Positions 443 to 17,844 are shown, numbered from the stretch's first letter. The stretch is 64,000 bases of DNA from Ignavibacteriota bacterium (GCA_963837815.1 CAWIOS010000012.1:783005-847004); one strand, 5' to 3'. Notes: generated from the letters alone by a model not told the origin. Numbers and translations are program-made.

Positions 443-2212
443 CTACTCGTGCGGAACGATTGCCCCGTTCTCGCGTACCGCCAGGTTCGATTTCGGCACA
501 TTCGCAGAAGCCTTCCTTCCGCCTTGCTTCCCGCCGGCAGCGAGGGGTGTGCCGGATGCTCCATGAGCCGACCCGTGTCCGTCGACTTTGAATTTTCCCA
601 GAATCTGCTGCAGGTTTTCCGTCAGGCGGTTCAGGTCCTCCGCCGCGCGGGCGATCTGCTGGGTCCCCTGTGCCGTTTCCCCGGTCACCGTGCTTATCGC
701 CTCGACGTTCTTGCTTATCTGTTCGCTTGCGCTCGACTGCTCTTCGCTGGCGGCGGCAATCTGGGATACCATGTCCGTCAGGTTCTGGATCATCGCCACG
801 ATCTCCTTCAGGGACGCGCCCGCCCTGTCGGCCAGCTTGATCCCGTGGTCTACCTCCTGCGTCCCCTCCTGCATCGACGCCACGGCCCCGGTCGTGTCGC
901 CCTGTATCGTCTTGATCATTCCGGCAATCTCCTTCGTCGCCTTGGTCGTGCGTTCCGCGAGCTTTCTTACTTCATCGGCCACCACGGCAAACCCGCGCCC
1001 CTGTTCCCCCGCGCGTGCCGCTTCGATTGCGGCATTAAGCGCCAGCAGGTTCGTCTGGTCCGCGATATCGTCGATCACCCCGATGATTTCGCCGATCTGA
1101 TCGCTCGATTTGCCGAGCGCTTTCACGGTTTCCGCCGACCTGTTGACAACCTCGGCGATCCGCTTCATCCCGGCGACGGTCTCTTCCACAACGGCACCGC
1201 CCTGCTCCGCCGCTTCCTTCGCCTTCTTCGCCGTTTCGGCCGTATTCCCTGCATTCTTGGAGTTCTCGACGATCGTCTTCGTCATCTCCTCGACTGCCGA
1301 AGCCACCTCGCCGGCCTGGGAGGTCTGTTCCTGCGAACCCGCGGCCATTTGCTCGGTGCTGGAGGATATTTCCGTGCTTGCGCTTGCCACCGCAGACGAT
1401 GCCTCACCCACCTGACCGATCGTCTCCCGCAAATTCTCCACCATCTGCCTGAACGCCCCGGCAAGCTGCCCTATTTCGTCCGCGGAATGCGCCTCCACAT
1501 CCACCGTCAGATCGCCCGTCGCCACCGCCTGCGCCTTTCCTGCAAGCTCCCCGACCGGCTTGCTTATCACCTGTGCGATGAAGAAACCAAGCGCGATGGC
1601 CGCCAGAACCGACAGCGCCAGCACGATGAGCATGATTCGCTGCGCGCTTTCCGCGAGCGAAGTGTTTTCCCCGGAAGTCTTCTTTGCCGCTTCGACGTTC
1701 AACTGAACGAGCCTGTCAATCGCGGCCTGCTGCGCTTTCGCGGCGGCAATGGCCGCATCGCTGCGAAGCACAACGACCGATTCGGCGTGCTTATTCGCAA
1801 GCGCGAGCTCGACGATCTGGTTCTGGAACGGGAGGAACGCCTCATGAGATTTGACAAAGTCCTTGAAGGCATCCTTGATCTCCTGGGAGATTATTGCTTT
1901 TTCGAATTCCGTGTTGGCTTTTTCCATTTTCTGTTCGAAATCCTTGAGCGCGGCGGAGTATTTTTCCTGTTCGGCCGGGTTCCGGGCAAGTATGGCATCG
2001 CGGTAGCTGACGCGAACCTGCTGGAAATCCGTCGCCATCGATGTGAGCGTGGCGATCGGCAGTGTCATATTCTCGTACAGTCTGGTGTCGGCTGCGCTGA
2101 CATCCTTCAGGTCTGTTATCCCGATGTATCCGACCAGTGCCGCAAGGCATGCCACCAGGATGAAGCTCACGAGGAGCTTCACGCGCACCTTCAGATCAAA
2201 GAACCATTTCAT
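443..2212 (-). CDS. Methyl-accepting chemotaxis protein (N-terminal sensor with 2 TM, HAMP, MCP signalling domain)
   Basis: ORF 443..2332; likely true start [11 protein letters not shown] at 2212 (GGAGGA RBS about 12 nt upstream on minus strand). Highly conserved MCP signalling-domain signature in C-terminal half ([48 protein letters not shown]); HAMP-like region after second TM ([21 protein letters not shown]). Confidence 0.85.
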
Positions 2213-2627
2213 GACGCTCATCCTCCAGGTTATCCGATTGTGATGAGACCCGACACTTCGTCCTGATATACCTATTACGACGGAAGCGGGCCGTGAAGCC
2301 TTTGTGTGCGAGACAAGAGGCGCAAAGTCCATGCCACAACGTTTGGCTGTTTATGCACTTCGTTGCGAACGGAAGGAAGTCTCCGGTGTCCATGGTTGGC
2401 CACGTGGTCGGGATTCTCACGCGCCGGCCGTCCGCGCGACACCTCCCGCCAGTGGCAATGGTACAGAGATTCACTCCGTCCGCCCGGATTATGAAGAGAA
2501 TTCCGTCGCGGGAAGGGTTGGCACAGCAATTGTCATTCATCAACCACCTTCCATCCGACATGCCGGAAGGAGGATGTCAGGCTGTCACGGAAGCAACAGT
2601 GTAATCGCACCCCAGGAGGAACATCAG

Positions 2628-4937
2628 GTGATTACAGCTCGAAAGCATATGCGGCTCATGCACGCAATCGTGCTCTTCACCTTCACTTCTATGCTCGTTA
2701 CGGTGACGCTCCCTGCGAGCGCTCCGGCACAGGAACTCTCGGCGAGAGAAAAACTGCTGAAGCTCCTGGATGAATCCGGCACGGCGAAAACGAACGGACG
2801 AACGGCAACGGGCGCCACGGCAAAACCTGCGAGGAGCCCTGAGAAGAGTCCGGCCCCGCACCGTTCCACGCCTGCAACGCCGCAGGCGTTGACTGCAACG
2901 CCGCAGGCGTTTACTGCAACGCCGCAGGCGGTGACTGCAACGCCGCAGGCGGTGACTGCAACGCCGCAGGCGGTGACTGCAACGCCGCAGGCGGTGACTG
3001 CAACGCCGCAGGCGTTGACTGCAACGCCACAGGCGGTGCCCGCGACGCAGCAGGCGGCGCACGCCGCAATCGTGACTTCCGGACCCGCGGTCGAGATTGC
3101 GCAACAGCCGCAGGCAGCCGCGGCACCCTCCCCCGCACAGGAACAGGGCCACGGCTCTTTCCCGATGACCGCCGTGATTGCCGCTGCCGCACTGGGGGGA
3201 GTTGCGGCTCTTGCAATCGGCATCCGGAAGAAGAAGATACGCTCGTACAGGCACTGGAGTCTGTCCGCAAAGGTGTGTTTTGTGTCCGTTGCCGCCGTGA
3301 TACCTCTGCTCCTTGTCGTGCTCGTGTACATACTTCCGACAATCCGGGAGCGCCTGTATGCGGAAAAAATCCAGGCGACAAAACAGGTCGTCGACCTCGC
3401 GTATGCGGTCCTTGCCGATTCCAGGGCGCAGGCGGACCGGGGCATTCTCACCGACGCAGCGGCACGCGCGCAGGCAGTCGAAAACCTCAGGAGGCTCCGA
3501 TACAACAAGGAGGACTACTTCTGGATCAACGACCTCACGCCGACCATGATCATGCACCCGTTCAAACCCGAAATGAACGGCAAGAATCTGAACGACTACA
3601 AGGATCCCAACGGGAAGCGGTTTTTCGTCGATATGGCAAAGGTGTGCGAGGCGCAGGGTGAGGGGGCAGTGGACTACATGTGGCCCAAGCCCGGGTTCGA
3701 CCGGCCCGTTCCCAAGATCTCCTACGTAAAGCTCTTCACGCCCTGGGGCTGGATCGTCGGCAGCGGCATATACGTCGAAGACGTGGAAGCCCAGATCGAC
3801 TCGCTCCGGATGGGCATACTGGCGGGCGCCCTTGGCGCGCTCGCCCTGTCGACACTTCTCGGGCTCGTGGTAGGACGGTTCATCAGGAAGCCCTTGCTCG
3901 ATGTGGCCACCCAGATGGCCAACGCTGACCTAAACACGGAATTCCGATCCGATCTCGACAATGAGATAGGCGACCTGCTGCGCGCATTTGACAAGTTTGT
4001 CCACTCGATACGACACGCCCTCCTGCAGGTGAGGGAAGCCTCCTTCGCCCTGGCAAGCGCAAGTGCGGAAATCAGCAGCAGCACCGAAGAAATGGCGGCG
4101 GGCGCACAGGAGCAGAGTTCGCAGGCAACCGAGGTGGCAGGTTCGGTGGAGGAGATGACAAAGACAATACTTGAGAACTCGCGGAATGCGGCCGGGACTG
4201 CCGAGATCGCGAAGCACGCGCGGCAGGCCGCCGAGGAGGGAGGGCGACTCGTGCAGGAGACCGTGGAAGGAATGAAGGGGATCGCGGAAGTCGTCAACGC
4301 CAGCGCGGGAATCGTCAGGGAACTCGGGAAATCGAGCGGCCAGATCGGCACGATCGTCACCGTGATTGACGAAATCGCAGACCAGACAAATCTCCTTGCC
4401 CTGAACGCCGCCATCGAAGCGGCCCGGGCAGGCGATCAGGGACGCGGATTCGCCGTTGTCGCGGACGAGGTGCGCAAGCTGGCTGAACGGACAACAAATG
4501 CCACAAAGGAAATTGCCGGGATGATCAAGAGGATTCAGTCGGATACCTCGGAGGCGGTGAAGTCCATGGGCGACGGCGCGGAGCGGGTCACCAGGGGGTC
4601 CGATCTGGCTGACCGGGCGGGCTTATCGCTTCGCGACATCGTGCAGACATCCCAGAAAGTCACGGACATGGTGGCACAGATCGCGGCGGCAAACGAGGAG
4701 CAGTCGGCCGCAAGTGAACAGATCTCAAAGAACGTCGAGACGATAACCATGGTCACCGGCCAGACCGCCGAGGGAACGACACAGATCGCAAAGGCGGCCG
4801 AAGACCTCAACCGGCTGACGGAAAACCTCCGCTCGCTTGTAGGGACGTTCGCACTCGACGACTCCCCCGCTCCGGCCCAGCAGCAACGCACCGGATCCCG
4901 GAAGCACGAACAGGAGCTCGCAGAACATGAAGCATGA
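2628..4937 (+). CDS. Methyl-accepting chemotaxis protein with signal peptide, TPQAxTA low-complexity repeat, periplasmic Cache-like sensor, HAMP and MCP domain
   Basis: ORF 2304..4937. Probable start GTG 2628 (AGGAGGA RBS 2613-2619) or ATG 2649 ([25 protein letters not shown] signal-like). Cache-like motif [45 protein letters not shown]...YMWPKPG; MCP signature [43 protein letters not shown]. Divergent from the upstream MCP. Confidence 0.8.
2871..3045 (+). repeat. Tandem 21-bp direct repeat (about 8 copies of actgcaacgccgcaggcggtg) encoding (TPQA[VLF]TA)n inside the MCP gene
   Basis: Directly visible in sequence 2871-3045; in-frame, translating to [26 protein letters not shown]...; minor unit variants (ttg/ttt/gtg at one codon). 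Confidence 0.85.
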
Positions 4938-6842: not shown

Positions 6843-7937
6843 TTACCTGAAGAGCCAGAGGAAATTGCCGTATCCCTCCTTCTGCATCTCGTCGGAGGGA
6901 ATGAATCTCATGGACGCGGAATTCATGCAGTAGCGAAGCCGGGTGGGAGGTGGACCGTCATAGAACACGTGCCCGAGGTGGGAATCGCCGTACCGGCTCC
7001 TGACCTCCACCCTCGTTTCCTCAAGCGATCTGTCGATCTTCTTCACAAGCATCCGCGGATCGATCGGTTTCGTGAAGCTCGGCCAGCCCGTCCCCGAATC
7101 GAACTTGTCCGTTGAGCTGAAGAGCGGCTCCCCCGAAACGACGTCGACATAGATGCCGGTTCTCCTGTTATCGTCGTACTCATTCTCGAACGGCTTCTCC
7201 GTCCCCTCATGCTGTGTCACCAGGTACTGCACCGGAGTGAGCCGTTTCCGCAACTCGTCGTCCGGCGGCTTCGTGAAATCCGTCCAGGCGATCTTCCCCC
7301 AGGTCTTCGCGATATAGGCGTCCCTCCCGGAGCCGGTCCTGTACGAATGGTAGCGGTCCGCACTCGTCTTGCAGTAATGCTGGTGGTAGTCTTCCGCGGG
7401 ATAGAACGACTCGAATGGAACGATCTTCGTGACGATGGGTCCGGCGAACAGGCCGGAGCGGCCAAGGAGCTCTTTTGTCGCCCCGGCAATCGCCCGCTGC
7501 GTCCCGTCGTGATAGAATATCGCCGAGACGTACTGCGATCCCCTGTCGTAGAATGATCCGCCGGCGTCTGTCGGGTCGAACTCCCTCCAGTAAACGTCCA
7601 GTATCTCCGCATACGAAATCACCTGCGGGTCGAACGTGACCTGCACGGTCTCAACGTGACCCGTCGAACCGGTGGAGACCTGCTCGTACGTCGGATTCCT
7701 GACGCTCCCCCCCGCATACCCGGAGACCACTTTCCGCACGCCGTCGAGATCCTCAAACGGCGCATCGATGCACCAGAAGCATCCGCCGGCAAACGTCGCG
7801 GTCTCGAGCCCGGCATCGGGCGCGACCGCGGCCCCGCCCCCGAGGGCGGTGCGCCCGTCTCCCTGCGTCCCCGCATCGCCGCTTCTGACGCACCCGGAGA
7901 AGGAGAGAAGCACACACAAAGACACAATCCTGATCAT
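6843..7937 (-). CDS. msrAB: Bifunctional peptide-methionine sulfoxide reductase MsrA-MsrB, lipoprotein
   Basis: ORF 6843..8000; start [16 protein letters not shown] (lipobox) at 7937 with AGGAGG RBS. MsrA active-site motif GGCFWC; MsrB motifs ([17 protein letters not shown]). Confidence 0.9.
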
Positions 7938-8165
7938 GAAAACCTCCTGTCGGGAGATATCGGGATTTCCGCCGCGGCGGACCGGAACGCCCCACTGCAT
8001 ATGAAACGTCCCGCACGAGCGCGGAGGTTCCCCGCCGGGGCGATACAGGCAGAATTCCTGGGGGGCGCGGGGGATCGCGGGGACTCCGCGGGATTTGTCA
8101 TCTCCCGTTCTGGCAACACGCGCCGGATTTCGTTATGTTGGGCGGTCGACGTGAAAGGAACAGCC

Positions 8166-8678: not shown

Positions 8679-10330
8679 AACCGCTCCGACGGCCAGAGGG
8701 CCTGGAACGTCGTGTTCATCCCCCTGCAGAGGAACAACAGGCGCCCGTTTTCGTACGGCATCGCATAACGGCACTCCGTGGTTCCCGCAAGCTCCACGCT
8801 CCTGTAACGCCGGTTCAGGTCGTTCAGGTTATCCTGAAGAAGCCTGTCGTGCCCGACGATGATGGCGATGTTTCCCGTCCGCTCACCCGGTCCCCACATC
8901 CAGTAGCTGTTGTGGGCGCAGAGCGCGGGGGGGAGCCCGTACTTCTTCCCGAAGAAATCCAGCGCCCCCGCCTCCCCGTAGTTGCGGACGAATATGACGC
9001 ACTGTTTCTGTTCCTCCGGAGAGAGCGTCCCGTAGATCTTCGCCACCCCGGCGGCAAACTCCTCCCATCCGAACTGATCCGCGTAATACTGCGGGAGCTC
9101 GCCCACCGAGCTCACTTCTTCTGATTTCGGCGCCCTGCCGAGCGCTTTCTCGTACGCGACGAACTTCTCCACCGGAAGGACCGGAAGCATGAACGGGAGA
9201 CCCACGGCAAGCAGGGCGACAATCAGCGCCGGGTAGACGACGCCGAGCGCACGCCAGACCCGGACGGCGGCACGCTCACGGAGGATCTTTTCCAGGAACA
9301 CCGCCCCCCCCGCAAGAAGCACGGGGTACGAGGCCGACATGTAGTACACCTTCCCGTTCCCCGCGATGATAATGCAGAAGAGGACGACGTACATCCACCC
9401 GAGAGCACGGAAGGGCTTCCCCCCCGGGTGGAAGAAAAAGAAGACGAGGCCGAGGATCCAGAGCGGCCCGTTCATGTAATTCATGCCATCGAACTGGCCC
9501 AGTATGAACTCTCCCAGGCCTATCTTCGCGTTCTTGATCTGGCTCGCGTTGTGCATGAACTCGAGCGAGGGGAATCCTTTCTGTATTTCCCAGACGACAT
9601 GCGGAAGGAAGATAAGGGCCGCGACGAGTACCCCCCCCCAGAATCTCGCCGTCGCCAGGTGCCTCCGGCCGGAGCTGAGAAGAAGTCCCGCGGCGATTCC
9701 CGCGCACATGAAGCCGATCGAGTACTTGTTGAGCAGACCAAGCCCCGCGACCGCGCCAAATGCCAGCCAGAGGTTCGGTGAGTCACCCGCAAGCACCCGG
9801 ACGCAGATGTAAAGTGAGGCCGTCCAGAGGAATACGTCGAGAGGGTTCATCGAATACGACCGCCCGCTCCCCAGGAGCATCCCGGCGGCTACAACCGAAA
9901 GAGATGACAGCCAGAGGGCAAACTTCCCGCCGCCGAGCCTCCGGGCCATCAGGGCCGTCAGGACCGAGGTGCCGCTTATCGCGAGCGCCGCGGGCACCCG
10001 GATGGCGTGGAGCGAGTCTCCGAAAAGCCATCGCCACGCGGCGAGGAATGCGATGGAAAGGGGAGGCTGATCGACGTATCCCCATGCAAGATGATCGGCA
10101 CACGCAAGGTAATAGAGCTCGTCCCTGAAGTAGCCGTAGGCCCCGTGAAAAGCCACCATGAGAAGGAATGCCGCGCAGGCAATCACAAGGGGGATCTTCA
10201 AATCCCCCGGCGCGGCTCCGGGGACAGGCGGGGAATCAATGCGGAAATCCATAAGACCTGGTACGTAACACGAGGGAAGGAGTTGCAGAGCCGGCAGCGG
10301 GAGAGGGGGCAAAGGCCGGGCTGCGGACAT
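8669..10330 (-). CDS. Integral-membrane glycosyltransferase, GT39/GT83 (PMT/ArnT-like) family
   Basis: 553-aa polytopic membrane protein with the conserved FRDELYY motif in the first periplasmic loop (DE motif of PMT/ArnT-type GT-C transferases); long soluble C-terminal domain. Alternative start at 10252 (MDFRIDSPP). 3' end overlaps the DinB-like gene convergently by 10 nt. Confidence 0.6.
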   Translation of the reverse strand: MSAARPLPPLPLPALQLLPSCYVPGLMDFRIDSPPVPGAAPGDLKIPLVIACAAFLLMVAFHGAYGYFRDELYYLACADHLAWGYVDQPPLSIAFLAAWRWLFGDSLHAIRVPAALAISGTSVLTALMARRLGGGKFALWLSSLSVVAAGMLLGSGRSYSMNPLDVFLWTASLYICVRVLAGDSPNLWLAFGAVAGLGLLNKYSIGFMCAGIAAGLLLSSGRRHLATARFWGGVLVAALIFLPHVVWEIQKGFPSLEFMHNASQIKNAKIGLGEFILGQFDGMNYMNGPLWILGLVFFFFHPGGKPFRALGWMYVVLFCIIIAGNGKVYYMSASYPVLLAGGAVFLEKILRERAAVRVWRALGVVYPALIVALLAVGLPFMLPVLPVEKFVAYEKALGRAPKSEEVSSVGELPQYYADQFGWEEFAAGVAKIYGTLSPEEQKQCVIFVRNYGEAGALDFFGKKYGLPPALCAHNSYWMWGPGERTGNIAIIVGHDRLLQDNLNDLNRRYRSVELAGTTECRYAMPYENGRLLFLCRGMNTTFQALWPSERFYI

Positions 10331-10382
10331 TCCGGCAAAGCTGCCTTTTCAGGCGAAACCGTGGGACTGGCCGAATTCGCGC

Positions 10383-10814
10383 TCAGACCCCGTGCTGCGG
10401 GACTGCTGACCAGTCCGCAGCGCCGAACGTGTCCTGTCCCGTTCTGAGAAGGAGGGCGAATTTCTTCACCGTTTCCACCGAGAGGAGGTAGTTTATTTCC
10501 GGCGCCTCCCAGGCATAGATGACCTTCGACACGAGCGAGCCGGTCGGCGTCCTCGGGTCCCAGGAAAACCGCTCGGACCTTACGAGCACCGTTGCGATGT
10601 CCTCGAGATGGCACGGCTTCACTTCCCTGAGGATCACCGCGTCACACAGCGCGGCGAGGTGGTCCGCGGTCACCACGAAGGCGGTGGAACGATCGTCCGC
10701 CAGCACAACGTCCGCCGCATCCCGCACGTCATTGTGCATCGTTTCGGCCTCTGCCGCCAGTACGGACGCTTTGATGCGTCCCTCAAAGAATCCTTTGATT
10801 GTCTCTGCGTTCAT
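10383..10814 (-). CDS. Hypothetical protein
   Basis: 143-aa ORF with coding-like composition, co-directional with neighbours; no family recognised. Confidence 0.35.
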   Translation of the reverse strand: MNAETIKGFFEGRIKASVLAAEAETMHNDVRDAADVVLADDRSTAFVVTADHLAALCDAVILREVKPCHLEDIATVLVRSERFSWDPRTPTGSLVSKVIYAWEAPEINYLLSVETVKKFALLLRTGQDTFGAADWSAVPQHGV

Positions 10815-11125
10815 TGTCCACCCCCCGCTGTGCGATCAATGGGTTTGTCGACCCAATGGATGCAGACACTGCGGCCAAGGGGAGAGCAGGAAGGTACAGA
10901 GAGAATCTCCGCAAATATCGAACGGGATCGGTGCGTGAAGACGCGGGAGAAGACGGAAGGAGGGATCCAGGGGCAGATTCAGCTTCTTCTGCACACACTC
11001 CCGGTTCGGATGGAGTGACGCAGTGTCAGCATAGGAAAGAACCTGGCCACTTTATGTTTCAACCTACACTTAATCCCCGCCAAAGTCAAGGCGCCGGTTG
11101 CGCCCGCACACCGGCACCGGAAGGC

Positions 11126-12301
11126 TCAATACCTCGGCATGTCGTTGTCGATGAGCTCAGCCCACGCGTCGATGCCGCCGACGAGGTTCTTCACCTTGCG
11201 GAACCCGAGCTGTTTAAGGAATTGAACGGCCTTCCCGCTCCGCACGCCGCTGTGACAGTAGACGACGATATCCTGTGACGAATCGAGCTCGTGAACACGC
11301 CGGGGAAGATCGTTCAGCGGGATCAGGTGACCGCCGAGATTCGCGATCTGGTATTCCTGGGGCTCGCGAACATCAAGAAGAAACAGATTCTCGCCACGAT
11401 CCAGTTTCTCCCTGACACCGGTGACAGTTATCGCGTATTCCCCGGACTCCGCTTCCGATTCTCGGGGGGTGATCCCGCAGAACGCCTCGTAATCGATAAG
11501 TTCCGTTATCGAGGGGTGCTCGCCGCACACCGGGCACTCCGGGTTCCGCCTCAATTTGAGCTCACGCGTCTTCATCGTGAGCGCGTCGATGAGAAGAAGT
11601 CTCCCCACGAGGGGTTCCCCGATTCCCAGTATGAGCTTGACCGTCTCAGCCGCCTGTATCGTCCCGACGATCCCCGGAAGAACTCCCAGCACTCCCCCCT
11701 CTGCGCAGCTCGGAACGAGCCCGGGAGGAGGAGGATCGGCATACAGACACCGGTAGCACGGACCGCCGGGAGCGGAAAACACGGAGACCTGCCCCTCGAA
11801 CCGGAAAATGCTCCCGTACACGTTCGGCTTCCGGAGGAGGACGCAGGCGTCATTGACAAGATACCGCGTCGGAAAGTTGTCAGTCCCGTCCGCGACGACA
11901 TCGTAGGCGCCAAGGATTCCCAGGGCGTTCCCCGACGTCAGGCGCGTGCCGAACAGCTCCACCTCCACGTGCGGGTTGAGGGAGTGAATTCTGTCCTTCG
12001 CGGAGTCCAGTTTCGGCCTGCCGACGTACGGTGTGGAATGAAGAACCTGGCGCTGGAGGTTCGATTCATCGACGACGTCGAAATCGACGATCCCGATTCT
12101 TCCGATTCCCGCCGCCGCGAGATAGAGCGCAAGGGGGGACCCGAGCCCTCCCGCACCGACGAGAAGAACGCTCGCGGATTTCAGCTTCACCTGCCCCTCA
12201 AGCCCCACCTCGGGAAGCATGAGGTGGCGCCCGTACCGCCGGATCTCTTCATGTGAGAGCCGGACGTCCGTCCGCACTCCCCTTCCGCCTGTTTCTCTCA
12301 T
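11126..12301 (-). CDS. moeZ: Sulfur-carrier-protein adenylyltransferase/sulfurtransferase MoeZ (ThiF/MoeB E1-like domain plus C-terminal rhodanese domain)
   Basis: Start MRETGGRGV at 12301 (GGAAGGAG RBS). ThiF/MoeB nucleotide-binding motif LLVGAGGLGSPLALYLAAAGIGRIGIVDFDVVDESNLQRQ; CxxC...CPVC zinc motifs; rhodanese active-site loop YCHSGVRSG. Directly downstream of cysO. Confidence 0.85.
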   Translation of the reverse strand: MRETGGRGVRTDVRLSHEEIRRYGRHLMLPEVGLEGQVKLKSASVLLVGAGGLGSPLALYLAAAGIGRIGIVDFDVVDESNLQRQVLHSTPYVGRPKLDSAKDRIHSLNPHVEVELFGTRLTSGNALGILGAYDVVADGTDNFPTRYLVNDACVLLRKPNVYGSIFRFEGQVSVFSAPGGPCYRCLYADPPPPGLVPSCAEGGVLGVLPGIVGTIQAAETVKLILGIGEPLVGRLLLIDALTMKTRELKLRRNPECPVCGEHPSITELIDYEAFCGITPRESEAESGEYAITVTGVREKLDRGENLFLLDVREPQEYQIANLGGHLIPLNDLPRRVHELDSSQDIVVYCHSGVRSGKAVQFLKQLGFRKVKNLVGGIDAWAELIDNDMPRY

Positions 12302-12302
12302 C

Positions 12303-12587
12303 TCAGAGGCTCCTTCCGCCTGCAATCGATGGAATGATGCTCACCGTGTCCTTTTCCGAGACCCGCGTCTGCTCCTTCTGCAGATAGCGGATATCCTCGT
12401 CGTTGACATACACGTTGACGAAGTTTCGCAGGGACCCCGTGTCGTCATAGAGGTGCCTCTTCAGAGGAGCGTACGTCGCCGTGAGTTTCCGCAGCAGCTC
12501 CCCGACGGTGCTCCCCTCCAGCGTCACGCTCTCCAGCTTTCCGGTGTACGTCCTGAGCGGCGTGGGAATCAAAACCTTTGTCGCCAT
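12303..12587 (-). CDS. cysO: MoaD/ThiS-family sulfur carrier protein CysO with C-terminal extension after the Gly-Gly motif (…IAGG-RSL)
   Basis: True start MATKVLIPTPLRTYTGKLESVTLEGSTVGELLRKL at 12587 (GGAGAAG RBS). 94 aa with ubiquitin-like beta-grasp pattern; ends …IIPSIAGGRSL. Flanked by the JAMM protease and MoeZ genes. Confidence 0.75.
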   Translation of the reverse strand: MATKVLIPTPLRTYTGKLESVTLEGSTVGELLRKLTATYAPLKRHLYDDTGSLRNFVNVYVNDEDIRYLQKEQTRVSEKDTVSIIPSIAGGRSL

Positions 12588-12609
12588 CGCTGTCTTCTCC
12601 CTGGAATAG

Positions 12610-13101
12610 TCACACTGTTTTTGAAATCGCGGCACCCGCCCGTTCGCGCACGGGCCGCACGGAGACGGTTTCGAGCGTATCGATGATCTCTTCATCGAAA
12701 CCCGACCGGTCCTCTTTCAGGACCCACGACTTTACCGCGGCGGGAATCCTCTGCTCGACTGCGGCGATGACATAGGAGCACCAGGGCCACGCATGATCGA
12801 GATCAAACTGCGACGGCCGGGCCGGATGATCGGGATGGGTGTGATAGAAGCCCATGACGCCGAGCCCTTCGGCCTCCGCGGCCGCCTCCGCCCTCCTGTA
12901 CTCTTCCGGCGTGATAAGGAACCGGCGCGTCCGGTTCTCTTCCTTCGCATTGCCGATGCGGAGGACGTCGTAGACCTCCTTCCCCTCCGCTTCCTCCAAC
13001 CCGATGAGAATGCCGCAACACTCCTCGGGGTACGATTCCATCGCGTGGACCTTTATCTTGTGCATCGCCGCGTGGGTTATCGCGATTTTCAATGCTGCCA
13101 T
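12610..13101 (-). CDS. mec: JAMM/MPN+ metalloprotease (Mec+-like CysO-cysteine hydrolase / C-terminal processing peptidase)
   Basis: Start MAALKIAITHAAMH at 13101 (GGGAGGA RBS). JAMM motif E(x)nHTHPDHPARPSQFD (H-x-H-x7-S-x2-D) plus upstream EECCG. Gene order cysM-mec-cysO-moeZ. Confidence 0.8.
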   Translation of the reverse strand: MAALKIAITHAAMHKIKVHAMESYPEECCGILIGLEEAEGKEVYDVLRIGNAKEENRTRRFLITPEEYRRAEAAAEAEGLGVMGFYHTHPDHPARPSQFDLDHAWPWCSYVIAAVEQRIPAAVKSWVLKEDRSGFDEEIIDTLETVSVRPVRERAGAAISKTV

Positions 13102-13105
13102 AGGA

Positions 13106-14035
13106 TCATTCCTCCCAGAACCGTTCACTCAGGTACCGGCTCCCGTGGTCGGGAAACACAGTCACGACGACCCCTTCGCTCAGTCTCCGGGCGACATGAA
13201 GGGCGGCGACCGCGGAGGCCGCGGAAGAGACTCCCACCAGAATCCCCGCCGTTTTCGCAAGGTGCCGCGCCATATCATGCGCCTCATCGGTTGAAATTTC
13301 AAGATGCTCGTCGGCAAGCTTCGTGTCGTAGATTCCGGGGACGATCGCCGTCTGGAGATGCTTCAGCCCCTCAAGACCGTGAAGGGGCGTATCGGGTTGA
13401 AAGGATATGCAGCGGACCGACGGGTTCAGCTCCTTCAAACGGCGGGCGGTTCCGACGAACGTGCCCGACGTCCCTATACCCGCCACGAAGTGGGTGACCC
13501 TTTCTCCCGCCTGGCCGTATATCTCGAGAGCTGTCGTCCTGTAGTGGGCCTGCCAGTTGGCCGGATTGTTGTACTGATCCGGATAGAAATATTCTTCCGG
13601 ACGCTCTGCAACAAGCTTTTTCACGTAGAGCTGCGCCCCGTCGGTCCCCTCCAGGGGATCGGTGTACGTGACCTCAGCCCCGTAAGCGGAGAGGATTCGT
13701 TTCCGCTCGGAGCCGGCATTGGCCGGCACGGCAAGCCTGACGCGGTATCCCAGGGCGGCGCCGATCATCGCATAGGCGATGCCGGTGTTGCCGCTCGTTG
13801 CATCCACTATCGTCTTTCCTTTCGTGAGCGCACCGGTCTTTTCCCCTTCCCGTATCATACTGAGCGCGGCCCTGTCCTTGACGGAACCGCCGGGATTGCA
13901 CCATTCCGCCTTGGCAACCACCTCCACGCGGGGGGAAATCCCCGGAAACGCCGGAAGTCTCAGGAGGGGCGTATTGCCGATCCTATCAATCAGGGGAGGC
14001 GCCCCTGCCGTCAGGTATGTCAAAGAATCTATCAT
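13106..14035 (-). CDS. cysM: PLP-dependent cysteine synthase, CysM-type (O-phosphoserine/CysO-thiocarboxylate dependent)
   Basis: ORF 13106..14071; probable start MIDSLTYL…IDRIGNTPLLRL at 14035. PLP-binding Lys motif SVKDRAAL, glycine-rich GNTGIAYA loop; fold-type II PLP enzyme of the CysK/CysM family. Operon context with CysO/Mec/MoeZ. Confidence 0.85.
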   Translation of the reverse strand: MIDSLTYLTAGAPPLIDRIGNTPLLRLPAFPGISPRVEVVAKAEWCNPGGSVKDRAALSMIREGEKTGALTKGKTIVDATSGNTGIAYAMIGAALGYRVRLAVPANAGSERKRILSAYGAEVTYTDPLEGTDGAQLYVKKLVAERPEEYFYPDQYNNPANWQAHYRTTALEIYGQAGERVTHFVAGIGTSGTFVGTARRLKELNPSVRCISFQPDTPLHGLEGLKHLQTAIVPGIYDTKLADEHLEISTDEAHDMARHLAKTAGILVGVSSAASAVAALHVARRLSEGVVVTVFPDHGSRYLSERFWEE

Positions 14036-14280
14036 TCGAAAAACTGTATATTCAATGAACAACGGAATCACACAGTGCGTTTCGTTTCAGCGGGAAGCAG
14101 GGCGTGTTACGTCAACAGGGGCGACAACAACAGCAGCACGGGAGTGGGGAACATGCGGGGCGACTGGCTCCGGCCGGTGCCGGGAAGGCCGCGTATGTGA
14201 ACCTTGTTCTCATTCAGTAATTAAGCGAAAAAGGGGGAATTGTCAAATCTGAATCCGTCCATTCACAGGGGGAACACAGA

Positions 14281-14973
14281 ATGGGCTTCACCGGTTCCAG
14301 GAAATCGCCCCAAAAGAGGAAGGGAAACGGGGCAGGGGGAGAAGCAACCGGAGCCGGCATCGAAGCGCTCATTATTTTCGCCACGCTCCCCAAACCGGGA
14401 GACGTGAAAAAGAGGCTCGCACGCGAGATCGGAGGGGAGCCTGCAGCCGCACTGTACAACGATCTCGCTCTTCATACGTTCCGGATCGGGCAGGAAGCGC
14501 TCGACAGGGGCTGGTCGGTGAACCTGTTTTATGATTCGAGGGTAAAAGAGGAAGAGGTCCGGGCGTGGGTCGGGAGAGGTTTTCACTTCGCGGCGGAGCG
14601 CGGAGGCGAGCCGGGAGAACGGATCCAGTATGCATTTGACTACACGTTTCACCGCCGCGCGGGGAAGGCGATCATCATCAGCAGCGACATACCGGGACTC
14701 GAATTCCCGCTCCTGGAGGAGGCCACAGAGACGCTTGACATCGTCGACGTCGTGATCGGACCGGCGAGCGACGGCGGGTGCTACCTCATCGGCATGAAAC
14801 CGCCCACGAAAGGCATTTTCCGGGACCTCCCGTGGGGGACATCGAACGTGTTCAGGGAAGCGTCAGAGAGGATTCACCGGCTCGGGCTGAAACAATCGAA
14901 TCTCACAAGGCTCAGCGACGTCGACACGGCGGAGTCGTACAGGAGCTATCTTCTGAAGAAGATGAAGAGATAG
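14281..14973 (+). CDS. DUF2064-family protein (glycosyltransferase-like/nucleotidyltransferase fold, TIGR04282-like)
   Basis: 230 aa; GGGGGAA RBS; motifs ALIIFATLPKPGDVKKRL and DGGCYLIGM recalled for DUF2064. Divergent from cysM. Confidence 0.55.
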   Translation: MGFTGSRKSPQKRKGNGAGGEATGAGIEALIIFATLPKPGDVKKRLAREIGGEPAAALYNDLALHTFRIGQEALDRGWSVNLFYDSRVKEEEVRAWVGRGFHFAAERGGEPGERIQYAFDYTFHRRAGKAIIISSDIPGLEFPLLEEATETLDIVDVVIGPASDGGCYLIGMKPPTKGIFRDLPWGTSNVFREASERIHRLGLKQSNLTRLSDVDTAESYRSYLLKKMKR

Positions 14974-15006
14974 AAGGCCCGGCATTGCCGAATGCAGGAC
15001 GGATTT

Positions 15007-17844
15007 TCATGAACCCGCTTTCGCCGTCGTGCATCTGTCGACGAGATAGACTATCGACTTGTAGCTCACGCCGCTGTGAAGCGAGAGCCCGATTTCACAC
15101 GTCCTGCTCGTCGAAAAGCCTTCCGCGCAGTCCCCGGGGATGCCCTCACGGAGAGCCGCAAGCGCGGATGCGTTCAATGCGGGGAACGTGAATCCACGAT
15201 CACCCGCCCATCCGCAGCAGCCGACGCCCTCAGGAACGACAACCCGCTCGGCGCACAATCCGGCAAGCTTCATGAAACTTGCCGAGAGACCCATCTTTTC
15301 CGCACTGCACGTGGTATGGATGGCCACGGTGACCGGCAGCTTACTGAACTCGAGCGTTTCCGGCAGGTACTTCAGGATGAATTCCACGGGCTCATACAGA
15401 CGAAGACGACTGTCGAGCGTCTCCTTCATCCGGTACAGGCAGGGGCTCATATCCACGTAGACGGGAAATTCGCCGTTGCGTGACGCGTCAAGGAGCGCCC
15501 GGTTAAGTTCGGCGGCCTTCATGGCCCCTTCCTCCCTGAATCCCTTGCTGTCAAAGGCCATTCCGCAGCAGAGACGGGAAAGATCCCGCGGGAACACGAC
15601 CTGATAGCCCGCCTTTTCCAGGAGCCCGACCGTCTTCTGCGTCAGCGCGGCTTCGTGAGCGTAATCGCGCGATCTCCCCATCGTCCGGTTTATGCAGCTC
15701 GGAAAATAGACGACCTTCCGCCGGAGTCCGGTTCCGGCACCGCGCACCCGCGGTATTCGGCCGGCACCGCGGGGCATGTATTCGTTCCAGAGGGGGATTC
15801 TGCCGCCCGAGAGGTTCCGTAACGCCCGCGCGGCGGCTCGCGTGTACGCCGTGCCGAACAGTGTGTGGCACACGCCGACAACCGACAACAGCGCACGCAT
15901 GAACAGGATAACAGCAGGGAAGTGCCGTGCGATCCGGCGCGCAACGGCACGGGGGAAGGGACCCGCATCCCGCCACCGGATTTCCTTTACCAGTTTTCCC
16001 GTGTCAATCCCGACGGGACATGCCATCGCGCAGAGACCGTCTGCAGCGCAGGTTTCAACGCCCGCGTAGAGGTACCCCGCGCGGAGCGCAGCGAGCCGGC
16101 CAGGGTTCTTCCCGGCCGCCTTGAGAAGCGACATCTCCCTGTACACCGCGATCCTTTGCCGCGGCGTGAGCGTAAGGTCCTTTGAGGGGCACCGGACTTC
16201 GCAGAAGCCGCATTCGATGCACCGGTCGATTATTGCGTGGGCTGCGGGGAGGGGTTTGAGATTCCGGATGTGAGCCAGGGGATCGTCGTTTATCACCACG
16301 CCGGGATTGAGGAGACCTTCCGGGTCGAATACCGACTTGATCTCCTTCATCAGGGCGTATGCTTCTGCGCCCCATTCGCGCTCGACGAACGGCGCCATGT
16401 TCCTCCCGGTGCCGTGTTCCGCCTTGAGCGAGCCGCCGTACTTCTGAACAACGAGCCGGGTCACGTCATCGATGAACTCCGCGTAGCGATCGACGCCCGA
16501 GGTTTCATTGAAGTCCTGGCTGAACACAAAATGGAGGTTCCCTTCAAGCGCATGGCCGAAGAGTATCGCATCGGCGTAGCCGTGCTTCACGAAGAGCTTC
16601 CTGAGATCCGCCGATGCCGCAGCCAGACCCGGGACGGGAAACGCGACATCCTCGATGATGACCGTCGTGCCGGTCCTCCGCATCGCCCCGATGGACGGGA
16701 AGAGTCCTTTGCGGATGTTCCAGAGGGTTTCATATTCGGCCTGGACGTCCGTGAAACGGAGCGGACGCACAAGCGGGCGACACTCCAGGGCGCGGGAGAT
16801 CTCCACAATGCTGCCTGCCAGGCCGGAAGGATCGCCCGAACGTGCCTCGACGAGAAGCGCGCAGACGTTTTCGTCAAGTCCCGGGAGATACTCCGGCATC
16901 CCCTCCTTCCCTTCCACGGAGCGGAGCGATGACCTGTCCATCAGCTCCACGGCGTCCGCTCCGCATGATCGCAGCGCCGGCACGGCGGCACACGCCGCAG
17001 CGATATCGGGGAAAAGGACGAGCGCGCTGGCTTTACAGGGAAGATCGGGGACGGTCCTATACGTCAGTTCCGCAATGAATCCGAGCGTCCCCTCCGAGCC
17101 AACCATCAGATGCTGTATGACGTCGACGGGATCATCAAAATCCACAAGGGCATTGAGGCTGTAGCCCGTCGTGTTCTTCATCCTGTATTTGTCGCGGATT
17201 CTGGAGGCAAGGGCGGGGTTGGATTTTATGCGGCGGGAGATTTCCGAGATCCGGCCGACAAGATCCGCGTGCCCGGCAGTGAACTCCTCCCTGCTTTTCC
17301 TGTCACCCGTGTCCAGGACGGATCCGTCGCCGAATATGATCCTCATGGACGCGAGGGTCCGGTAACTGTTCTGCGCGGTCCCGCAGCACATCCCGCTGGC
17401 GTTGTTCGCGGCAATCCCCCCGATCATTGCCGAATTGATCGAGGCGGGGTCGGGGCCGATCTTCCTCCCGTACGGGGCGAGAGCGGCGTTCGCGTGCGCG
17501 CCCACCACACCAGGCTGAAGCGTGATGCGGGAGCCGTCTTCCTGGATCGTGATCCGTGTCCAGGCACCGGCAAGGACGACCAGAATTGAATCGGAGACCG
17601 ACTGCCCGGAGAGACTTGTGCCTGCCGCGCGGAATGTCACGGGGAGCGAGAACCTCCGCGCTCCGGCGAGAACGCGGATGATCTCCGCCTCCGACTCGAC
17701 CCTGACGACGAGTTTCGGAATGAGCCTGTAGAAGCTGGCATCGGTGCCCCAGGCGAGCGTGCTCAGGTCATCGACGAGGAGCCGTGACGGGGGGAATGTA
17801 CTCTGCAGCGCTGAATGGATTTCGGCGTACCTGCCCGAAAGCAT
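15007..17844 (-). CDS. FAD-linked oxidase fused to Fe-S/CCG domain (D-lactate/D-2-hydroxyacid dehydrogenase, YdiJ/GlcD-GlcF-like)
   Basis: 945 aa. N-terminal FAD-binding PCMH-type domain (RAAGTSLSGQ); 4Fe-4S ferredoxin motif CIECGFCEVRCPS; C-terminal cysteine-rich CCG-type domains (GCCG). tatA lies immediately upstream on the same strand. Confidence 0.85.
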   Translation of the reverse strand: MLSGRYAEIHSALQSTFPPSRLLVDDLSTLAWGTDASFYRLIPKLVVRVESEAEIIRVLAGARRFSLPVTFRAAGTSLSGQSVSDSILVVLAGAWTRITIQEDGSRITLQPGVVGAHANAALAPYGRKIGPDPASINSAMIGGIAANNASGMCCGTAQNSYRTLASMRIIFGDGSVLDTGDRKSREEFTAGHADLVGRISEISRRIKSNPALASRIRDKYRMKNTTGYSLNALVDFDDPVDVIQHLMVGSEGTLGFIAELTYRTVPDLPCKASALVLFPDIAAACAAVPALRSCGADAVELMDRSSLRSVEGKEGMPEYLPGLDENVCALLVEARSGDPSGLAGSIVEISRALECRPLVRPLRFTDVQAEYETLWNIRKGLFPSIGAMRRTGTTVIIEDVAFPVPGLAAASADLRKLFVKHGYADAILFGHALEGNLHFVFSQDFNETSGVDRYAEFIDDVTRLVVQKYGGSLKAEHGTGRNMAPFVEREWGAEAYALMKEIKSVFDPEGLLNPGVVINDDPLAHIRNLKPLPAAHAIIDRCIECGFCEVRCPSKDLTLTPRQRIAVYREMSLLKAAGKNPGRLAALRAGYLYAGVETCAADGLCAMACPVGIDTGKLVKEIRWRDAGPFPRAVARRIARHFPAVILFMRALLSVVGVCHTLFGTAYTRAAARALRNLSGGRIPLWNEYMPRGAGRIPRVRGAGTGLRRKVVYFPSCINRTMGRSRDYAHEAALTQKTVGLLEKAGYQVVFPRDLSRLCCGMAFDSKGFREEGAMKAAELNRALLDASRNGEFPVYVDMSPCLYRMKETLDSRLRLYEPVEFILKYLPETLEFSKLPVTVAIHTTCSAEKMGLSASFMKLAGLCAERVVVPEGVGCCGWAGDRGFTFPALNASALAALREGIPGDCAEGFSTSRTCEIGLSLHSGVSYKSIVYLVDRCTTAKAGS

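Follow-up and report, generated by a model that had tools for sequence, protein, structure and literature searches.

In the protein-thiocarboxylate route to cysteine of Mycobacterium tuberculosis, which involves Mec+, the sulfur carrier CysO, CysM and MoeZ, the protease Mec hydrolyses the CysO-cysteine adduct, and cysO, cysM and moeZR are the genes Rv1335, Rv1336 and Rv3206c, respectively (PMC3227635). Operons of this kind were surveyed by Iyer, Burroughs and Aravind in 2006: the M. tuberculosis operon is of their type 4d, and their row 4c combines a ThiS/MoaD protein, an E1-rhodanese protein, a JAB protease and a cysteine synthase in hosts such as P. aeruginosa, R. palustris, Solibacter usitatus, Rubrobacter, Salinibacter ruber and Chloroflexus (PMC1779556). 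The sections of that survey available to us call type 4c uncharacterised and describe in it neither residues beyond the Gly-Gly (GG) end of the carrier nor CysO-MoeZ fusions; they also predict, in general terms, that the C-terminus of ThiS/MoaD fusion proteins could be released by JAB (PMC1779556). Here, we report on a cysM-mec-cysO-moeZ operon in a 64,000-nucleotide (nt) stretch of DNA, analysed as a whole and called the window below, from an Ignavibacteriota bacterium (GCA_963837815.1 CAWIOS010000012.1:783005-847004), in which the encoded carrier continues past GG with the tail Arg-Ser-Leu.

Tailed carriers have precedents. In Wolinella, the carrier HcyS-Ala reportedly bears an Ala after GG, and the JAMM protease HcyD is said to expose the GG end. 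JAMM trimming applies to QbsD/QbsE of thioquinolobactin biosynthesis, with a GG-CF tail, and was proposed for CxnF/CxnE of chuangxinmycin biosynthesis, where 10 amino acids (aa) follow GG (PMC5925218). Mec was needed to mature MetO in the methionine route of Streptomyces albulus, according to a 2026 GapMind preprint citing Hasebe 2024; that text has "N terminus" for the maturation, which we took as the C-terminus. DRJAMM of D. radiodurans cuts a linear MoaD-MoaE fusion and exposes the C-terminal Gly for activation (PMC8832034).

The carrier gene of the window (12303..12587, minus strand) encodes a CysO-like ThiS/MoaD protein of 94 aa (PF02597 ThiS, 6.9e-16). All family profiles on this protein end at residue 91, the second Gly of Gly90-Gly91, and the mature part, residues 1-91, corresponds to 12315..12587 (minus strand). 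The gene runs through ATT GCA GGC GGA to Gly91, continues with the tail codons AGG AGC CTC (12306..12314, minus strand) and closes with TGA (12303..12305, minus strand; tail and stop together 12303..12314), after which a single g precedes the ATG of moeZ; the protein ends ...S-I-A-G-G-R-S-L-stop. Its best solved relatives are CysO of M. tuberculosis (3dwg_C, 8.4e-18) and of Amycolatopsis (4n6e_B, 5.7e-17), and both end at their own GG, which aligns end-to-end with residues 90-91; this homology to solved CysO structures is enough to settle the fold of the carrier. The claim that the carrier ends in IAGGRSL and not in GG, made in an earlier sequence-only reading of this DNA, was thus borne out by both the DNA and the profile ends. 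GG is not the encoded free C-terminus of this carrier, and proteolytic maturation is therefore required for function.

Tails were found to be the rule among relatives. Of the 120 closest proteins in a collection of 5.8 billion proteins, 118 carry residues after GG (1-52 extra, mostly 1-5), with variable sequences among which "RS" is commonest, and two have a free GG end. We also read the carrier through to its stop codon in 160 loci, 80 from species-representative genomes and 80 from metagenomes; because the peptide patterns used to fetch these loci excluded the C-terminus, the sampling was not biased to tails. None of the 160 carriers ends at GG: a short and variable tail follows in 85, the frame continues into MoeZ in 72 and the contig runs out in three, so that a tail or a fusion is present in all 157 assessable loci. 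Tails in relatives span 1 to about 20 residues, or go onward into MoeZ, and the residue directly after GG may be A, R, S, L, T, N, V or others. The same GG-R-S/D/G/E... architecture recurs in independent assemblies with carriers 84-95% identical (the 10 loci L001, L081-L083 and L161-L166). Among representatives of 50%-identity clusters with a recognisable GG motif, 3/129 end at GG, a crude figure only, as the set is mostly truncated or frameshifted. An alignment of CysO/MoaD/ThiS homologues had been suggested in the sequence-only reading as a check on the extension, and relatives all ending in GG as the result that would count against it; the homologues confirmed the extension, and the latter pattern was decisively absent from both samples.

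In mycobacterial CysO, by contrast, a GG end was seen in 110/120 proteins and a short tail in 9/120. Tails thus arise sporadically even in a clade that normally ends at GG, and they are therefore tolerated wherever Mec exists. The nine mycobacterial tails (P0146, P0157, P0166, P0169, P0174, P0211, P0228, P0233 and P0237) include SA, S, SAGGA, AVGR and SVDGV.

Whether the tail could stem from an error in sequencing or assembly or from a frameshift, with the true protein ending at GG, was considered in the light of these comparisons. Errors of this type do occur in the comparison set, as is shown by frameshifts in cysM of some long-read loci, but we found no support for one at the tail: GG-R-S-x in independent assemblies, the tails of the closest proteins and the lack of any in-frame stop directly after GG in the 160 loci rule an artefact out to near certainty. 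As a separate observation, cysM is split over two or three frames in long-read metagenome-assembled genomes (MAGs) at L027, L046, L047, L052 and L056, probably through indel errors and not because these are pseudogenes.

In the 72 loci (~45%) whose carrier lacks a stop after GG, translation continues into a full-length MoeZ and gives the arrangement CysO-linker-ThiF-rhodanese, with a linker of 14-45 aa ahead of a conserved RYSRH motif (L015, L017, L019, L025, L029, L038-L040, L044, L046, L050-L055, L059, L061, L062, L065, L066, L068, L074-L079 and many of L085-L160). The hosts of these fusions are mainly Vicinamibacterales (typified by L017), Bryobacterales (typified by L038) and other Acidobacteriota, together with a few Bacteroidetes-labelled MAGs and one "Thermoplasmata" MAG. 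A search of our literature library returned no paper on CysO-MoeZ fusions, which is not proof of novelty. In one locus (L109, Ga0116117_1005906, carrier at 2071-2343), the carrier is followed by 109 codons that seem to hold only the rhodanese part of MoeZ (...ILDVREPHEYQ...), with ThiF apparently missing or deleted. Three cluster representatives (P0307, P0316 and P0253) are also unusual, in that two have a TusA/SirA-like segment (LDCRGLLCPMPVV) after the carrier GG and the third has two tandem carrier-like stretches; these may be artefacts of a noisy set.

Most loci by far keep the gene order cysM-mec-cysO-moeZ. Where enough upstream DNA was available (125 loci), the gene immediately upstream of the carrier is a mec homologue in 122, including 71/71 loci with short tails and 48/51 with fusions. 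Syntenic relatives of the window are MAGs labelled Ignavibacteriae or Bacteroidota, and L161, whose carrier is 95% identical, also has the window's flanking DUF2064, 143-aa and PMT_2 genes.

In the window's own lineage, the tail appears to have a second use at the DNA level. The last Gly codon and the tail codons, GGA AGG AGC, contain the Shine-Dalgarno-like motif AAGGAG (12310..12315, minus strand), which starts within the codon of Gly91, runs into the second tail codon and lies 8 nt upstream of the moeZ ATG (gcaGGCGGAAGGAGCctcTGAgATG). In the 10 close relatives named above, the tail always opens with AGG or AAG, and the next codon is AGC, GAC, GGC, GAA or GAG; AGG accounts for only 19% of Arg codons in the window. 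To judge from these codons, what is conserved in the tail of this lineage seems to be its nucleotide sequence, as a ribosome-binding site for moeZ, and its codons may have been co-opted as the Shine-Dalgarno site of that gene. In some Bacteroidota relatives, the tail overlaps the moeZ start. As a general cause of tails, such an overlap was rejected: Acidobacteriota tails (e.g., Ala-Arg-Asp) are non-Shine-Dalgarno, and a separate GGGAGA is present there in a spacer of 14-43 nt. The term pro-sequence, used in the sequence-only reading, therefore holds only in part: a tail after GG is real and is conserved as such, but its hypervariable length and sequence, and its coincidence with the moeZ ribosome-binding site in this lineage, do not speak for a designed element.

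How a masked carrier could enter the pathway can be considered from the chemistry of its partners. E1 enzymes, including ThiF and MoeB, adenylate the free carboxylate of a C-terminal Gly, and so the tail, or a fused MoeZ, must be cut first. The sole protease encoded in the cluster is the product of mec (12610..13101, minus strand), a JAMM/MPN+ zinc metalloprotease of 163 aa (PF14464 Prok-JAB, 5e-25). Its JAMM motif is intact (HTHPDHPARPSQFD, that is, H-x-H-x7-S-x2-D with residues H-T-H-P-D-H-P-A-R-P-S-Q-F-D), the upstream Glu lies within the segment PEECCG, and its best match in the PDB is 2kcq (3.3e-33), which we take to be a Salinibacter ruber protein.

By analogy with the known JAMM-processed carriers, the best explanation, and in our view a probable one, is that Mec trims pro-CysO and also releases cysteine. 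CysO would be made as a short precursor ending in GG-RSL, and the adjacent Mec would hydrolyse the peptide bond after Gly91, a bond of the type that it would also cut in the CysO-Gly-Gly-Cys intermediate. The ThiF domain of MoeZ may then adenylate the freed Gly carboxylate, and a persulfide on its rhodanese domain may turn the CysO adenylate into CysO-COSH. The CysM-like pyridoxal phosphate (PLP)-dependent enzyme would add aminoacrylate from an activated serine (O-phosphoserine or O-acetylserine), after which Mec would free cysteine and CysO would be regenerated. Burns et al. reportedly showed in 2005 that an S-to-N acyl shift turns the CysO-Cys adduct into an ordinary peptide bond (CysO-GG-Cys); because the adduct is a peptide bond after Gly, removal of RSL would be the same reaction carried out on an encoded intermediate. 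Moreover, because Mec is an obligatory enzyme of the pathway that would remove whatever follows GG, the position of the stop codon after GG should be little constrained. Variable tails fit such a relaxed constraint on the end of translation, and loss of the stop would then give CysO-MoeZ fusions. The sequence-only reading had proposed this dual role of the JAMM protease; an adjacent JAMM enzyme with an intact motif is indeed the obvious processing enzyme, and we infer the cleavage itself and the dual role from context and precedent; the sequence of steps and the choice of serine donor are likewise inferred.

With regard to the serine donor, cysM (13106..14035, minus strand) encodes a PLP-dependent cysteine synthase of 309 aa from the ATG at 14035 (PF00291 PALP, 2.6e-71). 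The open reading frame (ORF) can be extended to a GTG at 14071, although the ATG at 14035 is the gene-caller start in relatives, and the homologues in L162-L166 are called as 309 aa. On the TIGR01138 cysM model, the enzyme scores 354 bits, below the cut-off of 394 bits; its best PDB match is CysM of E. coli (2bhs, 224 bits), compared with 165 bits for CysM of M. tuberculosis (3dki). With CysM of an M. tuberculosis-complex contig it shares 35% identity, and a Lys aligns with Arg220 of that protein, the residue that presumably serves O-phosphoserine use in M. tuberculosis CysM. By these scores, the enzyme resembles CysM of E. coli more than that of M. tuberculosis, and O-phosphoserine use is not to be assumed; given this relationship and the Lys at the Arg220 position, the donor may be either O-phosphoserine or O-acetylserine.

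The moeZ gene (11126..12301, minus strand) encodes 391 aa with a ThiF domain (PF00899, 4e-81) and a C-terminal rhodanese domain (PF00581, 9.7e-16), as the sequence-only reading had stated. Scores on NF005902 (MoeZ, 492 bits) and NF005646 (535 bits) are both high but below the cut-offs. The motif GAGGLG, the two CxxC pairs CYRC and CPVC, and the rhodanese loop CHSGVR with the active-site Cys were all seen. These features identify the protein as an E1-like adenylyltransferase with a rhodanese domain, and it is predicted to be the thiocarboxylate former.

Several points weigh against the trimming of pro-CysO by Mec. Cleavage of GG-RSL is argued from precedent in other systems, and the Mec of the window is just 31% identical to the M. 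tuberculosis enzyme (over 98 aa of the mec product of the M. tuberculosis-complex contig, E 2e-7) and scores 71.6 bits on the NCBIfam "desampylase" model, with a cut-off of 130. The CysM-like enzyme is no orthologue of the O-phosphoserine enzyme of M. tuberculosis, and part of the pathway analogy is accordingly assumed. Three fused loci (L044, L074 and L076) have no adjacent mec, so some genomes apparently make do with a different protease. These three loci would also suit removal of the tail by some other enzyme, such as a housekeeping carboxypeptidase, and the desampylase match would suit an uncut carrier that does not act as a thiocarboxylate donor but, for example, as a protein modifier of the SAMP/Urm1 kind, with the JAMM protein as its deconjugase; among NCBIfam models, the carrier matches SAMP1 best (56.3 bits, cut-off 60), and conjugation is raised as a possible role of JAB-associated systems by Iyer et al. 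2006 (PMC1779556). However, the SAMP1 and desampylase scores both lie below their cut-offs, as does that on the SAMP-activating E1 model (337, cut-off 450), and the best solved relatives of the carrier are two characterised CysO proteins. The cluster always pairs a cysteine synthase with a rhodanese-bearing E1, a signature of sulfur transfer, and has no E2-like gene; furthermore, a modifier would need a free GG equally. We consider removal by another protease, or a modifier role, quite improbable.

The near-absence of a free GG over several phyla is a further point against, as it could mean that masking is selected, as opposed to a neutral ratchet combined with shared ancestry or horizontal transfer. 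A tail or MoeZ fusion might act as a selected safety catch that makes activation Mec-dependent, keeps CysO from other E1 or MoaE-type partners, or ensures that carrier and E1 are made 1:1. This would agree with the almost complete lack of free GG in Acidobacteriota, Bacteroidota/Ignavibacteria-like and other MAGs (0/157 loci and 2/120 proteins), compared with 110/120 in mycobacteria, and with the recurrence of the MoeZ fusion in 72 loci. However, tail length and sequence are unconserved, unlike those of a recognised regulatory element, and what is conserved in the window's lineage, AGG/AAG and purine-rich codons at the nucleotide level, fits a ribosome-binding site. The counts ignore kinship and horizontal transfer of loci, and the cluster comes with neither a regulator nor a sensor. 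Selection of this kind therefore seems unlikely to us. A broader proposal, that CysO of the whole clade (Acidobacteriota, Bacteroidota/Ignavibacteria-like and other uncultured lineages) is an obligate precursor that never has a free GG, with masking selected as a checkpoint of Mec dependence and RSL as its minimal form, is put forward as a speculative possibility. If it is true, the masked state would be a bacterial metabolic counterpart of ubiquitin precursor processing by eukaryotic deubiquitinases, and nearly half of the relatives' precursors would be polyproteins of a ubiquitin-like protein and its E1 (CysO-linker-MoeZ).

As regards the layout of the operon, the four ORFs are all co-directional on the minus strand in the order cysM-mec-cysO-moeZ, within 11126-14071 if cysM is extended; the operon studied here spans 11126-14035, and the coordinates given in the sequence-only reading were correct. 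The cysM stop and the mec ATG are 4 nt apart, and the cysO stop and the moeZ ATG 1 nt apart. A Shine-Dalgarno-like motif precedes the ATG of every internal gene (mec, cysO and moeZ) by 8 nt: that of mec, GGAGGA, sits within the last cysM codons, and that of cysO is GGGAGA. The best explanation of this arrangement is a tightly packed, translationally coupled operon for the production of cysteine via a protein thiocarboxylate. The family assignments, with E-values well outside the range of chance matches, upheld the sequence-only reading as to the CysO route; its description of the operon as complete is accurate for the four core proteins, although genes for the sulfur source of the rhodanese and for supplying activated serine lie elsewhere.

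An Rfam scan of 9000..16000 showed no riboswitch or leader near the operon. Its single match was a sub-threshold M23 small RNA at 15714..15763 (minus strand; 27 bits with a gathering score of 41, E 0.05), which lies inside an ORF for an FAD-oxidase/Fe-S protein and is most likely due to chance. Promoter and terminator patterns in 10200..14400 were no more numerous than in shuffled sequence and hence uninformative.

Among the neighbouring genes, a 143-aa ORF with no Pfam match (10383..10814, minus strand) lies directly downstream of moeZ; L161 and L163 have a 143-aa gene at this position, which L164-L166 lack, and the ORF is probably outside the pathway. A DUF2064 gene (14281..14973, plus strand) is divergent from cysM and is kept as a neighbour in L161-L165. 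A gene for an MsrA-MsrB fusion (PMSR and SelR; 6843..8000, minus strand) is located ~3 kb downstream of the operon, and L161 has the same neighbour. Two genes for methyl-accepting chemotaxis receptors, at 443..2332 (minus strand) and 2304..4937 (plus strand), were also noted, with a 4HB_MCP sensor in one and a Cache sensor in the other.

The operon type (2006), the pathway and the JAMM trimming of extended carriers were all already known, and the window adds no new mechanism. What emerges is that a masked carrier is the norm in a large, mostly uncultured clade, with a mask that ranges from one residue to a whole E1 enzyme. A simple rationale may be that each turn of the catalytic cycle already has Mec cutting behind the terminal Gly, which makes whatever follows GG tolerable. 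At the DNA level, a tail can also serve as the ribosome-binding site of the downstream gene. No description of clade-wide masking, of E1 fusions in ~45% of loci or of a tail doubling as a ribosome-binding site was found in the literature library searched, which again does not prove novelty. In practice, automated annotation and pathway-gap tools should accept CysO candidates that lack a C-terminal GG, and heterologous expression of tailed carriers needs either Mec or a construct that ends at GG.

Compared with the M. tuberculosis pathway, the window encodes the same four protein families, and the best solved relative of its carrier is the CysO of that species; the M. tuberculosis protein ends at GG, whereas the window carrier ends in GG-RSL. 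Contrary to the sequence-only reading, the gene order does not match that of M. tuberculosis: the M. tuberculosis-complex contig reads ClpS-DUF2017-S58 peptidase-mec-cysO-cysM-rhomboid with no moeZ nearby, so that the order there is mec-cysO-cysM, with moeZ unlinked (Rv3206c). It is row 4c whose gene content is identical to that of the window and whose order the window matches. The window also has what characterises QbsE/QbsD-type systems, residues after GG and a JAMM gene in one cluster. Like QbsE/QbsD, CxnE/CxnF and MetO/Mec, it pairs a carrier encoded with residues after GG with a JAMM protease in the cluster, and in the window, trimming by that protease is predicted. Those three systems, and HcyS-Ala/HcyD, serve siderophore, antibiotic or homocysteine synthesis, whereas the window carrier sits with a cysteine synthase; their tails are CF, a decapeptide or Ala, and no report places the ribosome-binding site of a following gene in any of these. 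Finally, the CysO-MoeZ fusions of the 72 related loci are analogous to the MoaD-MoaE fusions cut by DRJAMM and to those associated with archaeal HvJAMM1. In MoaD-MoaE, the carrier is joined to its downstream partner MoaE for molybdopterin synthesis, whereas CysO-MoeZ joins the carrier to its E1, and in the window itself the two genes are separate.

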